Of a stretch of 64,000 nt of DNA, positions 6,626 to 10,986 are shown piece after piece; within the stretch, counting starts at the first letter, position 1, and each line of letters opens with the position of its first letter. The notes beneath the pieces are model-generated. The model was not told the DNA's origin. It saw nothing but the letters and a program-made list of their open reading frames with translations, and made no database searches. The stretch is from an uncultured Actinomycetota bacterium (GTDB lineage: Bacteria; Actinomycetota; Actinomycetes; JAHEKZ01). The DNA is taken from contig CAVURN010000005.1 of assembly GCA_963743915.1 (NCBI GenBank), positions 416,001 through 480,000 on the forward strand, read 5' to 3'. The position numbers and the translations under genes were made by a program.

Positions 6626-6717
6626 CTCGGCACCCACGCCCGACATCAGCGTGCTCAGCGCCGCGAAATCGCTGCCGGACAGGCCCCAGGAGTCGAACCG
6701 GCGCCAAAGTGGGCCTC

Positions 6718-6723
6718 TAGACT
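6718..6723 (+). promoter_or_regulatory. Probable -10 element (TAGACT) of the tRNA-Arg gene
   Basis: TANNNT hexamer about 70 bp upstream of the tRNA. Confidence 0.35.
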
Positions 6724-6793
6724 TGCTCCGCCTCGGTCCGGACAGATCGCGGCAGGGTCCAGCAGGTTTCCCACAAGGAATCCCGCACGTCCC

Positions 6794-6866
6794 GCCCTCG
6801 TAGCTCAGGGGATAGAGCAGCGGTTTCCTAAACCGTGTGTCGCAGGTTCGATTCCTGCCGGGGGCA
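6794..6866 (+). tRNA. tRNA-Arg (anticodon CCT)
   Basis: Acceptor GCCCTCG/CGGGGGC, D arm GCTC-AGGGGATA-GAGC, anticodon arm GCGGT-TTCCTAA-ACCGT, T arm GCAGG-TTCGATT-CCTGC; CCA not fully encoded. Confidence 0.97.
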
Positions 6867-6875
6867 CCGTGGTTT
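6862..6875 (+). repeat. 14-bp target-site duplication GGGCACCGTGGTTT, copy 1 (overlaps the tRNA 3' end)
   Basis: Identical to 8245-8258; directly flanks the TGT...ACA ends of IS element 1. Confidence 0.88.
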
Positions 6876-8244
6876 TGTATTACTCCGGCTGATACGTGAC
6901 ATTTCGGCTTCGGCTGATCGCGTGACAGTGTTTCGGTTGATGGGTTACAGCTGCTTCGGTTGATTGGTGACACTCCCTGGATGAGGGAGATCAGTGTGGC
7001 TGAGCAGAGGTATCAGGCGGTTCTGGCGGTGCTTGCCGATGGCGAGACGGTGACCGATGTGGCGGCCCGGTTCGGGGTCTCGCGGAAGACCGCTTCATGG
7101 CTGGTTGCGCGAGGTACGAGGCCGGCGGGATGGAGGAGCTGGGGGATCGGTCGCATCGGCCGCGGTCGTGTCCGCATCAGATGTCGGCGGATGTGGAGGT
7201 GATGGTCGCGCGGTTGCGGCGGGCGCATCCGTCGTGGGGTCCGCGGCGGTTGGTGTTCGAGTTGGCCAAGGCGGGGGGTGGACCCGGTGCCGAGTGAGTC
7301 GGGGGTGTATCGGGCGCTGTCGCGGCTGAGACCTGGTTGATCCGGACGCGCGGCGGCCGCGGGAGCGGAAGTGGAAGCGGTGGGAGCGGGGCTCAGCCGA
7401 TGGAGTTGTGGCAGATGGATGTGGTGGGTGGGTTCGTGCTCGCTGATGGGCGGCGGGTCAAGGCGTTGACCGGGGTCGATGACCATTCCCGGTTCTGCGT
7501 GTCGGCGTTCTTGATGGTGCGGGAGTCCTCCAGCGCGTCTGTGAGCGGTCTGACGTTGGCGCTGCGGACCTATGGGGTTCCCGGGCAGGTACTGACCGAC
7601 AACGGGAAGGTCTTCACCGGGCGGTTCAACAGACCGCCGGTGGAGGTGCTGTTCGACCGGGTGCTGCGGGAGAACGGGATCGAGCATCTGCTGACCCAGC
7701 CCCGGTCCCCGACCACGACGGGGAAGGTGGAGCGGTTCCACCGGGCGATCCGGACCGAGTTCCGCACCGACCGGGTGTTCGCTGACCTTGGCGCCGCGCA
7801 GGCAGAGCTGGACGCCTGGGTGGAGCAGTACAACCATCAGCGACCGCACCAGGCCCTGCAGATGGCCACCCCCGCGTCACAGTTCCTCAACGCCCCCGCT
7901 TCGGTGGCTCCCCTGCGCCCGGTGCTGACCCGGGGCAGGCCGGACGCTGCCCGCGGCGACGGTGACTGGGTGGCCCGCCGGGCGTCCGCAGTGGGCGTTG
8001 TCACGGTGAACTGGCAACAGGTATGCCTGGGGATCGCAGCCGCCGGACGGAACATCGATGTCTGGGTCACCGACCAGGTCCTGCAGTTCTACGACGGCGA
8101 CACCCTGCTGCGAACAGAGAAACGGAGCACTCCTGGACCAGTCCGAAAGAAGCGGGCGTCGATCCCCGGCGGCCGCGAGACACTACGAGCGAGTGGAACC
8201 AATCAACCGACCTAGAACTGTCACCCATCACCCGAAGGTCAACA
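6876..8244 (+). mobile_element. IS481-family insertion sequence, element 1
   Basis: TGT...ACA ends; imperfect 28-bp TIR (TGTATTACTCCGGCTGATACGTGACATT vs TGTTGACCTTCGGGTGATGGGTGACAGT); four CGGYTGAT-N-TGACA-type repeats at 6886, 6911, 6934, 6957; exact 14-bp TSD. Confidence 0.9.
6981..8215 (+). CDS. IS481-family DDE transposase, frameshifted in this sequence
   Basis: N-terminal HTH MREISVAEQRYQAVLAV; LWQMD, DDHSRF, LTDNGKVF, TTGKVERFH, YNHQRPH; split over three frames near 7100 and 7260-7340. Confidence 0.88.
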
Positions 8245-8258
8245 GGGCACCGTGGTTT
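8245..8258 (+). repeat. 14-bp target-site duplication, copy 2
   Basis: GGGCACCGTGGTTT directly after the ACA of element 1. Confidence 0.88.
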
Positions 8259-8259
8259 T

Positions 8260-9653
8260 TGTGTGGTCTCGGTTGAGTGGTGACGTTTCCTGCTCGCCTG
8301 AGGCTTGACGGTGTCTCGGCTGATGGTTGACACCGTCTCGGTTGATTCTTGACACCTGTTGGTTGCTGTCGTCGTCTCGTCGTAGGTCGAGGCGGAGGGA
8401 GCCCGATGGTGCTTCGGGAGCTGAGCGTGGCTGAGCAGCGGTATCAAGCGATTCTGGCGGTGATCGAGGATGGTCTGTCGGTCACGGAGGTGGCCGGCAA
8501 GGTGGGGGTGAGCCGGCAGACGCTGCATGCGTGGTTGGCGCGGTATGCGGCTGAGGGGCTGGAGGGTCTGGGTGATCGTTCGCATCGGCCGCGGTCGTGC
8601 CCGCATCAGATGGATCCGACGGTAGAAGTACGGATCACCGAGCTTCGAGCGTTGCATCCGGGGTGGGGGGCGGACCGGTTGGCGTATCGGCTGGGTCGGG
8701 AGGGGTTCGACCCGGTGCCGAGCCGGGCGGCGATCTCGCGGGCGTTGGTGCGGCTGGGGCTGGTCAACCATGACCGCCGCAAGGGGAAGCGGGAGTACCG
8801 CAGGTGGCAGCGGTCGCGGCCGATGGAGCTGTGGCAGATGGACGTGATGGGGGCGGTGATGCTCGCCGACGGCACCGAGCTGAAGGCGGTGACCGCGATC
8901 GATGACTGTTCCCGGTTCGCGTTGGCCGCGCGGTCTGGTGCGGCGGGCCTCCTCCCGTCCGGTTTGTGGGGTGTTCAGTCAGATCCTGACGCAGTTCGGG
9001 GCACCGGAGGAGGTGCTGACCGACAACGGGAAGGTGTTCACCGGCCGGTACTCGCTGCGCCCGATCGAGGTGCTGTTCGACCGGATCTGCCGGGAGAACG
9101 GCATCACCCATCGGCTGACCGCACCCCGGTCACCGACCACGACCGGCAAGATCGAACGGTTCCATGGCACCTTCCGACGCGAGCTGCTCAACGGGCGGGT
9201 GTTCGACTCGATCGCCGACGCCCAGCAGCAGGTCGATGCCTGGCTGGTGGAGTACAACACCGACCGTCCCCACGCCTCCTTGCAGCGGCGGACCCCGGCG
9301 GAGGTGTTCAACGGTCGCGACCCCGATGCCGGCCCACCGGTCAAGGTTGACCAGGTCCTGGTCCGCCGCGACGGTGACGGCTGGATCAGCCGTCGGGTCG
9401 CCTCCAACGGGATCATCTCCGTCGCCTGGCAGCAGATCAGCTGCGGCAAGTACCGCGCCGGCGAGATCGTCGACGTCCATCTCCGTGACGGCCTGGTCGA
9501 GATCTGGTCCGGCAACGACCTGATCCGCACCGTCGTCCGCGACAACGAAAGGAGCGTCCGCAAGAAGCGGGCCAGCAAACCCGCCCAAACATAGACTCAA
9601 GGCGTCAAGGATCACCCGAGCAGAAACCGTCAAGCATCAGGTGAGACCCGACA
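8260..9653 (+). mobile_element. IS481-family insertion sequence, element 2 (different from element 1)
   Basis: Left end TGTGTGGTCTCGGTTGAGTGGTGACG vs reverse complement of right end TGTCGGGTCTCACCTGATGCTTGACG; four subterminal repeats at 8270, 8295, 8317, 8339. Confidence 0.9.
8406..9594 (+). CDS. IS481-family DDE transposase, one frameshift near 8930
   Basis: MVLRELSVAEQRYQAIL HTH, LWQMD, IDDCSRF, LTDNGKVF, TTGKIERFH, YNTDRPH. Confidence 0.9.
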
Positions 9654-9705
9654 GGGGCACCGTGTTCTGTGTGTGGTCTCGGTTGATGGTGAGCGTTCCG
9701 GTCTC
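9654..9705 (+). mobile_element. Diverged third copy of the tRNA-end repeat (GGGGCACCGTG-TTCTG) followed by an orphan IS481-type left end
   Basis: TGTGTGGTCTCGGTTGATGGTGA at 9670 nearly matches the left end of element 2; no transposase follows. Confidence 0.65.
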
Positions 9706-9819
9706 GGCCGACCCCAGACTGCGCCCGGTCACCGGAAAGCGCCAGGCGCGATCAAGGTGTAGCAGATCGGGTTATTGGGCATGGGGACGGTGAAACCTCA
9801 TGGAAGGACTGAGGTCATC

Positions 9820-10200
9820 ATGTCCATCTATCAACGCAAGCCGCACTTCGCAAAGGCATACTCGTTCGCCATTGTCACTGGTCTGCTCTTTCTGGTGAGC
9901 TGGCTTGCCCAGTTCCTGACCCAGATGCAGGTCGCTCGGGACGAAGCCAGTCAGCATGGCCAACCGTTCCTCTGGTCCGACTACCTGCCTCAGTTCTTCG
10001 CGTCGACTTTCGAGAACTGGCAGTCGGAGTTCCTGCAACTGATCTGGCAGGCCGCCGGACTGGCCTTCTTCTACTTCTGGGGCTCGTCACAGTCGCGGGA
10101 GAGCGACGAACGCCTCGAGGCGAAGATCGACACGCTCCTCCGGGAGCGAGGCGTCGATCCTCGTCAGGTCAACCAGGATCCCGTGGAAGAGGTCCTGGTC
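9820..10200 (+). CDS. DUF6766-like small membrane protein; 3' end uncertain because no in-frame stop is present
   Basis: FENWQSEFLQL...GSSQSR signature with two hydrophobic segments; GAGG RBS; the frame runs on antisense to the next gene. Confidence 0.65.
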
Positions 10201-10209
10201 GCGCGACCT

Positions 10210-10986
10210 CTAGCCGGACGTGATCGACTCGCACTTGAAGACGATGATGTCGCCGCGGTCGCGGATGGCCCTGTCCCTGCCGCCTCCGCAGTAGATCCGG
10301 TCAGCACCCTCACCACCCACGGCGGTGTCGGTGCCGTATCCGCCGGTGATGTGGTCGCTTCCCGGACCGCCCTTGACTCGATCGCGCTGGTCGCCCGTTC
10401 GGATCCAGTCGTCACCGGCTCCGCCGCGCACCCGATCGTGCCGGAAGCACCGTTGAAGAAGTCCGGACCTGAGCCCAGCAGAGCGGTGTCGTCGCCACCA
10501 TCACCCAGCACGGTCAGCGAGAACTCAGCGGACAACGTCGACCCGTCGACGAAGTCGTCGCCGAGTCTGGGCCAGACCTCCACGAGCAGGCGGTTGTCCT
10601 CGCTGATGCCGTACGGAATCGGGCACTTCGCAGCAATGCCAGCGGACGCCCTTGATCTCCGTGCACTGCGCCGGCAGCGCGTCGATGCGGTCGGTTCCCC
10701 TGTCCGCGAAGCGGAGCTGGTCGCCGACCTGGGTGATCACCAGGTGGCTGTTCTGCTGACCGGCGCGGTAGCGGTACCCGCAGTCGGTCTTGAGGATCCT
10801 GGCCGCGTTCTTCATCGCCAGGTGGGGGTTGCGCCCGAGGAGCTCAGTGGTGAAGGAACACGTGTCCGGACCTGCAGCCGGTTGCTGGGTCGCGGCTACA
10901 GAACTACCGCCTGTCATGAGCGAAGTGATTGCGACGGCCGTGAGGGCGGCCAGGGTGCCTGCGAGTCGTGCGTCTCGCCTGAACAT
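10210..10986 (-). CDS. Secreted RTX/hemolysin-type calcium-binding-repeat protein, paralog 1 (frameshifted)
   Basis: Signal peptide MFRRDARLAG..; GDGGDD, GGAGDD, GGPGSD, GGEGAD nonapeptides; close paralog of 11247-12023; frame breaks near 10440 and 10590-10640. Confidence 0.75.

Follow-up and report, generated by a model that had tools for sequence, protein, structure and literature searches.

The 64-kb stretch of DNA analysed here (the window) belongs to an uncultured Actinomycetota bacterium. At the 3' flank of one gene, tRNA-Arg(CCT), it very probably records three or more insertions that followed one another, all by IS481-family insertion sequences of a clade that is specific for both site and orientation. 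The clade is large and mainly found in Actinomycetota. Its members are 1.30–1.41 kb long, contain one gene of about 400 codons, have TGT..ACA ends and carry four repeats resembling transposase sites at the left end and about two at the right end. In the encoded protein, two helix-turn-helix (HTH) regions at the N terminus are followed by a DDE (rve) core and, at the C terminus, by a beta domain. The existence of a single-gene IS481 subgroup targeting tRNA 3' ends had been proposed in a sequence-only reading of this DNA, and the tabulation of homologues and their flanks supports it.

On insertion, the left end of the element is joined 9 nt (8–11) downstream of the discriminator base, with the transposase gene and the tRNA pointing in the same direction. 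The accompanying duplication of 15 bp (14–16) consists of the last 6 tRNA bases and 9 flanking bases, and because it includes those 6 bases the tRNA stays whole and the target is rebuilt beside it. A later arrival would land between the tRNA and the older element, and a stack would build up in this way. In the proposed mechanism, the transposase itself would read the 3' part of the tRNA gene and measure the distance, and the newest member of a stack would always be the tRNA-proximal one.

The locus in the window is made up of the following features:

6794–6868, plus strand: tRNA-Arg(CCT), the target gene, with its discriminator base at 6866 (ARAGORN, sequence)
6861–6875, plus strand: target-duplication copy A (GGGGCACCGTGGTTT), comprising 6 nt of the tRNA, which end with the discriminator, and 9 nt more (sequence)
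6876–8244, plus strand: element 1, IS481 family, 1369 bp, TGT..ACA ends (sequence)
6885, 6910, 6933 and 6956: the four left subterminal repeats of element 1, with inverted copies at its right end at about 8194–8236
6981–8215, plus strand: transposase gene of element 1; as assembled here, its first third contains four or more frame changes
8245–8259, plus strand: target-duplication copy B, 14 nt identical to copy A (sequence)
8260–9653, plus strand: element 2, IS481 family, 1394 bp, TGT..ACA ends (sequence)
8269, 8294, 8316 and 8338: the four left subterminal repeats of element 2
8406–9594, plus strand: transposase gene of element 2; as assembled here, the frame changes once, near 8930
9654–9669, plus strand: target-duplication copy C, diverged (GGGGCACCGTGTTCTG) (sequence)
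9670–9720, plus strand: left-end stump of a third element that keeps the terminal TGT, a first subterminal repeat at 9679 and a portion of the next one

tRNA-Arg(CCT) is the sole tRNA found by ARAGORN in the window. Its discriminator A at 6866 is followed by CCGTGGTTT and then by TGTATTAC, which opens element 1 at 6876; the insertion point, earlier placed roughly 10 nt past the discriminator, is corrected to 9 nt. Element 2 opens with TGTGTGG at 8260 and is preceded by GGGCACCGTGGTTT, which starts at 8245. The stump opens with TGTGTGGTCTCGGTTGA at 9670; its likeness to the left end of element 2 extends over about 50 nt and then fades. A repeat of the tRNA 3' end stands before each of the three left ends. 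Exact copies of GGGCACCGTGGTTT occur twice in the 64 kb (6862 and 8245) and a copy with two mismatches once (9655); the number of looser matches, with three mismatches, is what chance would give (9 matches at three or fewer mismatches, with 7.0 expected). The order of tRNA-Arg, element, repeat, second element, diverged repeat and third left end, as first described, is borne out by ARAGORN and by the sequence.

The terminal inverted repeats of the two elements are imperfect, with 21 of 30 positions matching in element 1 and 19 of 30 in element 2. The subterminal repeat unit is (C/T)CGG(C/T)TGA..TGACA, spaced at 22–25 bp and present four times in each of the two left ends. Each element contains one gene, and both genes encode IS481-family (rve) transposases, as judged from the profile and Pfam matches of their open frames; the Pfam matches of the open frames of the window are HTH_23, HTH_28, HTH_32, LZ_Tnp_IS481, rve and rve_3. 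Since the DNA of the two elements is only 64.5% identical, a segmental duplication is excluded, and the earlier statement that they encode two distinct proteins holds. A hairpin, CTCCCT/AGGGAG, is present at 6973–6989, with the likely ATG of element 1 (6981) in the loop and codons 2–3 in the 3' arm. A start-codon hairpin is also found in the majority of 67 folded loci (mean −13.1 kcal/mol, compared with −9.5 for shuffled sequences), and it could damp the translation of read-through transcripts coming from the tRNA gene.

The source genome (G000) comprises 2.9 Mb with 70% G+C in 5 contigs, the window being C5:416001-480000. Related DNA was located by blastn with elements 1 and 2 at four further loci, each immediately 3' of a tRNA gene and on its strand:

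tRNA-Thr(CGT) locus: full copy, 86.8% identical to element 1, broken
tRNA-Arg(ACG) locus: full copy with an intact 397-residue transposase gene (protein P0001)
tRNA-Lys(TTT) locus: left-end remnants
tRNA-Lys(CTT) locus: one left-end remnant

The terminal TGT begins 8–10 nt past the discriminator base at all five tRNA loci of this genome. The copy at Arg(ACG) is flanked by an exact 15-bp repeat, GGCGCGCCAGCAGTT, and that at Thr(CGT) by a 15-bp repeat with one mismatch. In a tblastn search of the source genome with P0001, matches are confined to four tRNA-anchored elements. All four transposase-bearing copies are thus at tRNAs, as are two remnant loci, and five different tRNA genes are used. The chance of such a site is about 3e-5 per random insertion, a rough value based on about 50 tRNAs, a 4-nt window, one orientation and 2.9 Mb. 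The mapping of other copies, which had been suggested as a check, therefore places every locus of this genome behind a tRNA gene. The locus behind tRNA-Lys(TTT) (L003, G000:C3:532620-534300) contains three left-end remnants, two of which stand on either side of an unrelated gene whose product has repeated Ltp-like segments (translation read by eye). Before the third remnant stands a fragment similar to a tRNA-Lys(CTT) 3' end, and this remnant differs little from the one at the Lys(CTT) locus.

P0001 has at least 8000 database relatives at E<1e-10. The top 120 are 69–100% identical to it, the value of 100% coming from the query's own cluster, and are 384–417 amino acids long, bar two of 334 and 445 amino acids. 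A scan of one genome per prokaryote species gave 583 relatives, of which the best 80 (54–74% identity) were taken for analysis of their flanks. The hosts of these 80 include Mycobacterium/Mycolicibacterium, Nocardioides, Kribbella, Blastococcus and Acidimicrobiales, and a few are bins labelled Dormibacterota, Chloroflexi, Acidobacteriota and Bacteroidota. Most of the 80 loci are described by the following rows, and the rest are discussed with the conflicting evidence below:

61 of 80: tRNA called by ARAGORN on the same strand, ending 58–209 nt before the gene
1 of 80 (L074): tRNA cut by the contig end and called by Rfam
2 of 80 (L008, L076): element behind another element
4 of 80 (L020, L035, L054, L072): contig begins at or within the element
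2 of 80 (L051, L077): element without a left end

The distance from tRNA to gene at the 61 loci is mostly 124–132 nt, and 160–176 nt in one subclade. Junctions were anchored on the T loop, with the discriminator taken as T54+19; they were callable at 67 of the 80 loci, which together with three loci of the source genome gives 70 junctions. The offset past the discriminator is 9 nt at 44 of these, 10 nt at 17, 8 nt at five, 11 nt at two and 6 nt at two, and at least one of the 6-nt offsets is a mis-pick, as L059 reads 9 on inspection. Where a tRNA is adjacent, none of the 80 elements faces the opposite way. At 38 of the 70 junctions the flank is repeated 1297–1410 bp downstream with one mismatch or none; the repeat measures 15 bp in 23 cases, 16 bp in ten, 14 bp in three and 17 bp in two, and both 17-bp repeats run on by chance into the ACA end. 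In most of the 38 the repeat begins at or beside tRNA position 68, so that its length tracks the offset in most cases. The tabulation of homologues, flanks and tRNAs called for in the sequence-only reading hence gives tRNA-proximal elements with a fixed offset, one orientation and duplications of 14–17 bp, and a predominance of non-tRNA sites with short or random duplications is not seen in the best 80 of the 583 relatives. The anatomy, offset, orientation and duplication are established by these loci.

At L070, L083 and L024 the target repeat of 13–16 nt occurs twice in tandem behind the right end with no element between the two copies, which may be the footprint of an older element that was excised or deleted. 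At L008, where the element lies 1.5 kb behind tRNA-Thr(TGT), the repeat in front of it is of tRNA-Lys type (GGCCCACC...), which suggests recombination between copies at different tRNA loci.

An independent sample was obtained from 150 genomes drawn evenly from the class. Matches are present in 42 of 151 genomes (G000 counted), and 40 loci were taken in three groups. Group A (13 loci) consists of all 11 full-length matches of at least 61% identity outside G000 and two split copies, group B (seven loci) of matches with long open frames of 518–639 amino acids, and group C (20 loci) of matches selected by E-value, one per repeated element, from about 50 at 29–37% identity, skipping G052:C69. About nine fragmentary matches were left out (G085:C5, G117:C1 twice, G033:C13, G131:C41, G052:C199, G086:C25, G092:C1:4514851 and G086:C106). 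All 13 loci of group A have a tRNA (Arg, Met, Lys or Thr) ending 127–172 nt before the gene; the offsets are 8–10 nt, exact repeats of 14–16 bp are found at nine loci, and transposase frames of about 400 amino acids are open in 11 relatives of the class sample. In group B, a nearby tRNA is found in none of the four assessable loci with proteins of 589–639 amino acids; of the two relatives with proteins of 518–519 amino acids, that of 518 amino acids has a tRNA-Met 298 nt upstream, off the fixed offset, and the other has too little flank. In group C, none of the 16 assessable distant relatives has an upstream tRNA on the same strand. The restriction of the trait to the clade is established by this comparison.

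The genome G053 contains four copies of a 1363-bp element with no mismatches among them, each at an offset of 9 nt and with an exact 15-bp duplication, at tRNA-Lys(CTT), tRNA-Arg(TCT), tRNA-Thr(TGT) and tRNA-Lys(TTT). The use of several different tRNAs by one active element follows from these four identical copies and is likewise established. No relative reaches 60% identity in 72,556 plasmids; the nearest three found there, with proteins of about 600 amino acids, have no tRNA within 1.5 kb. Two matches, both distant (28% and 30% identity), come from phage records.

The 59 distinct target sites comprise 17 tRNA-Met, 17 tRNA-Lys, 12 tRNA-Arg, eight tRNA-Thr, two tRNA-Asn and one tRNA-Gly genes and two degenerate tRNA-like fragments. 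By anticodon, these are Met(CAT) 17, Lys(TTT) 9, Lys(CTT) 8, Thr(CGT) 6, Thr(TGT) 2, Arg(CCT) 5, Arg(TCT) 4, Arg(ACG) 3, Asn(GTT) 2 and Gly(GCC) 1. Compared with the 41 non-target tRNAs of the source genome, the targets are enriched in T36-A37-A38, in the A31-T39 pair and in G68, with which the duplication begins. No conservation is seen in the 9 nt that separate tRNA and element. Six or seven copies adjoin fragments that keep only the last 28–48 nt of a tRNA, which hints that the 3' part of the tRNA may suffice for targeting, if the insertion did not precede the truncation. A possible mimicry of the tRNA T arm by the ends of the elements, both of which contain TTCG, was considered by eye and dropped because of a mismatch in spacing, the distance from the T loop to the first repeat being 37–38 nt and that between repeats 22–25 nt.

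Several observations weigh against so simple a picture. The target tRNAs form a restricted set, and tRNA-Arg(CCG), whose T arm and acceptor are almost identical to those of Arg(CCT), is yet never a target, so that a simple “T arm plus acceptor” rule fails. At seven of the 80 loci (L011, L012, L019, L039, L048, L050, L057) the element is preceded only by sequence resembling a tRNA 3' half, with no tRNA call by ARAGORN or Rfam (E<=0.01), and three others (L031, L067, L068) have a complete left end and no recognisable tRNA-like sequence. The flanking repeat was not found at 32 of the 70 junctions; of these, seven have less than 1.5 kb of downstream DNA and L005 has 1.6 kb. The decay of the genes in the window, judged by at least four frame changes in element 1 and one in element 2, is out of step with the proposed age order. 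Taken together, the unconserved 9-nt spacer, the case of Arg(CCG) and the copies beside 3' fragments indicate that the distance is measured from inside the tRNA gene.

The interruptions of the transposase genes, which the sequence-only reading does not mention, are private to this assembly. Four public metagenome runs from soil and sediment contain contigs that are 90–99% alike (1–4% different) to elements 1 and 2. The contigs similar to element 1 are without the extra bases at 7092, 7110, 7273, 7332, 7396 and 7545 and have one base more after 7529, while the extra base at 8930 in element 2 is missing in one public run. With the differences seen in the public contigs applied, element 1 is open for 430 codons and element 2 for 415 codons. 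Because all of the frame changes are absent from the public contigs, intact versions of both elements exist, and the gene-based “decay” is perhaps an artefact of assembly. The interruptions may represent either recent real damage or consensus errors. Element 1 and the copy at tRNA-Thr have one +1 indel in common. In a contig of run X2, the tRNA end is joined directly to a left end similar to that of element 2, with no element 1 between them.

An order with the newest element next to the tRNA fits the repeats in the window, where the copies on either side of element 1 are identical (14 nt), the third copy is diverged and the outermost member is a stump. It also fits tRNA-Lys(TTT) of G053, where the active copy adjoins the tRNA and a stump of about 55 nt from another element lies behind the duplication. 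These few cases give limited support to the age order first proposed, with which the larger number of frame changes in element 1 than in element 2 disagrees. A decay that rises with distance from the tRNA is similarly seen in the duplications, perfect and then mismatched, and in the outermost stump, but not in the possibly artefactual interruptions of the genes. Stacks or second left ends are present at six or more other loci (L007, L028, L038, L055, L065, L119); L065, the one stack with three visible repeat copies, is uninformative on age order. The comparison with an empty locus, also proposed earlier, gave a partial answer: the tRNA-Arg loci of 30 relatives are free of the element, but their flanks are unrelated, and among these 30 neither an exact empty site nor conservation of the DNA downstream of the array (9712–10900) was found.

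P0001 matches the IS481 model NF033577 with 301.5 bits (cut-off 224), its residues 4–295 aligning with model positions 1–284. Asp140, Asp200 and Glu244 are invariant or nearly so in the alignments. The intact 397-residue Arg(ACG) copy and the relatives of about 400 residues indicate a single open frame with no programmed frameshift. Residues 300–397 are outside the IS481 NCBIfam model and match no Pfam family. A first structure model, made from 20 close sequences, was poor (predicted local distance difference test, pLDDT, 52.7) and was not used; a second one, made from 59 sequences, has a pLDDT of 87 and a predicted template modelling score of 0.70. The modelled protein comprises helical DNA-binding regions (residues 1–110), an RNase-H-like core (about 135–295) and a six-stranded beta domain (about 325–380). 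Foldseek ranks IS21 IstA first (8q4d, 8b4h), followed by the ShCAST and Tn7 TnsB proteins, MuA and retroviral integrases. IstA, TnsB and MuA all act with a separate AAA+ target protein. Unlike these systems, the elements described here encode no target-selecting partner.

This last point bears on what directs the insertion. Targeting might be real and yet be directed by a host protein, by transcription of the tRNA gene or by the tRNA transcript (as an R-loop or RNA cofactor) instead of by a reading of DNA. The same element uses four tRNAs with differing acceptor stems and flanks, and the enriched U36-A37-A38 and A31-U39 belong to the anticodon arm, which lies some 40 nt away from the insertion point; the reliance of the structural relatives IstA, TnsB and MuA on a separate partner points the same way. 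Against a host-directed process, the element has no second gene, Arg(ACG) is targeted though it is without U36-A37, and six or seven copies lie beside uncalled tRNA 3' fragments that are unlikely to be expressed, although insertion may again have come before truncation. We consider direction by the host unlikely, but it is the least improbable of the alternatives. The “built-in safe-harbour” targeting of the sequence-only reading accordingly stands as far as the single gene and the intact tRNA are concerned, while recognition by the transposase only is an inference beside which a host factor or the tRNA transcript has to be placed.

The other two alternatives deny targeting or the array itself. 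Insertion might be random, with survival only behind tRNA genes because the site is harmless, and the tRNA is indeed intact after insertion. Selection is unable to yield a 9-nt offset at 44 of 70 junctions, a single orientation throughout and four identical, hence recent, copies at tRNAs, and the arrangement is seen in none of the 16 distant IS481 relatives in the same kinds of genome, which makes an origin by survival extremely improbable. Instead, the tandem might stem from a segmental duplication, from a site-specific integrase or from an assembly in which strain variants were wrongly joined at the shared tRNA end. The genome resembles a metagenome bin (5 contigs, 90% complete), it has indels that are missing from near-identical public contigs, and none of the public contigs compared spans the whole tandem or crosses one of its junctions by 31 nt on both sides. 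The 64.5% identity of the two elements, a common repeat of 14–15 bp that is too short to mislead a long-contig assembler, the similar stacks at six or more other loci and the absence of an integrase gene in or beside the array all contradict this explanation, which is very improbable as well. Successive insertion by a site- and orientation-specific IS481 clade is therefore the preferred explanation.

The elements resemble the IS481 family in having one DDE (rve) transposase with an N-terminal HTH and leucine-zipper region, TGT..ACA ends and a match to NF033577. They differ from it in the strict targeting of tRNA 3' flanks, in the four left and about two right subterminal repeats and in the roughly 100 C-terminal residues outside the NCBIfam model. 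IS481-family members have duplications of 4–15 bp and lengths of about 0.95–1.3 kb, so that the duplications of 14–17 bp and lengths of 1297–1410 bp found here are at or just past the upper limits. The type element IS481 from Bordetella pertussis prefers NCTAGN and makes 6-bp duplications.

Tn7-like transposons, namely cyanobacterial elements and the type V-K and I-D CRISPR-associated transposons, home downstream of tRNA genes by means of TniQ/TnsD or guide RNAs (PMC9881144, PMC11837452, PMC11406308). The elements of the window share with them a fixed-distance, orientation-specific insertion downstream of a conserved gene that is left intact, TGT ends, several asymmetric transposase sites and a transposase fold resembling TnsB. 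Tn7-like elements possess TnsB, TnsC and a selector of the TniQ family, make 5-bp duplications and are many kb long, in contrast to the one gene, 15-bp duplication and 1.4 kb found here. No TnsC (AAA+) or TniQ/TnsD gene is present between the ends or flanking the array.

IS1202-family elements target dif/pdif sites (PMC10132070). They too are small insertion sequences with one orientation and a position within a few bases of a conserved host site, but that site is a XerC/D site and not a tRNA 3' flank. Some IS1202 subgroups have long duplications. The match of P0001 to NF033594 (ISNCY_2) is 83.9 bits, below the cut-off of 250. Casposons and the islands of tyrosine integrases also use tRNA 3' ends, leave an end repeat and can form tandem arrays, and casposons make 14–15 bp duplications, but the enzymes are Cas1 and a tyrosine recombinase, respectively. 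Neither Cas1 nor a tyrosine or serine recombinase is present in the elements, in which only HTH and rve domains were found.

A second, distant IS481 clade (29–37% identical to P0001) also abuts tRNA genes, at L141, L146 and L147 and at L103, L106 and L108. Its ends are mostly TGTGATGTCTC, with the variants TGTGTTGTGCG in L147 and TGATGTCTT in L108, and its tRNAs are Ala-CGC, Pro-GGG and Thr-CGT, and Arg-TCT in relatives of the same genus. The elements are 3–4 nt past the discriminator base where the offset is readable (L141, L146, L147, L103, L106), and the transposase gene points towards the tRNA in the three loci where it is seen. This arrangement is present in three of the 16 distant relatives examined. 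A conserved motif of about 40 nt (…CGCTNCCCCTAGTCGGGACCNACGTCCCTG…) is located 30–70 nt downstream of tRNA-Arg(TCT) in several genomes of the same genus; it is fullest in L102 and L104, and only its 3' half is present in L106 and L108. Upstream of tRNA-Arg(CCT), about 150 nt (window 6654–6803) recur upstream of tRNA-Arg(TCT) in the same genome, and parts of this segment recur many times in genomes of the same genus, often without a tRNA.

In bacteria, the systems held to home precisely to tRNA genes are, to our knowledge, tyrosine or serine integrases and Tn7-like transposons made up of several proteins. A literature search whose range did not extend to ISfinder/TnPedia, subscription journals or supplementary files gave no account of IS481 elements next to tRNA genes. 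It is tentatively proposed, at somewhat short of even confidence, that a class of tRNA genes is recognised by a lone protein, about 400 residues in length, which works without an ATPase partner, a selector or a guide RNA and places 1.4 kb of DNA at a single nucleotide position and always the same way round, that this trait arose in at least two IS481 clades (the second with TGTGATGTCTC ends, 3–4 nt past the discriminator and in the opposite orientation), and that these elements, undescribed in print, are the smallest natural bacterial safe-harbour inserters known.

A one-gene insertion sequence of this kind raises the question of how a plain DDE transposase gauges a fixed distance from the gene of a structured RNA. 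The elements are short and some, such as the four identical copies in G053, are clearly active, so that direct testing is feasible. Homing of this kind also accounts, in the genomes and bins of actinobacteria, for direct repeats of tRNA ends and many “integrase-less islands”, for assembly breaks at tRNA genes and for stacks of remnants behind them. As a compact, orientation-specific, single-protein inserter, such an element is also of interest as a tool.

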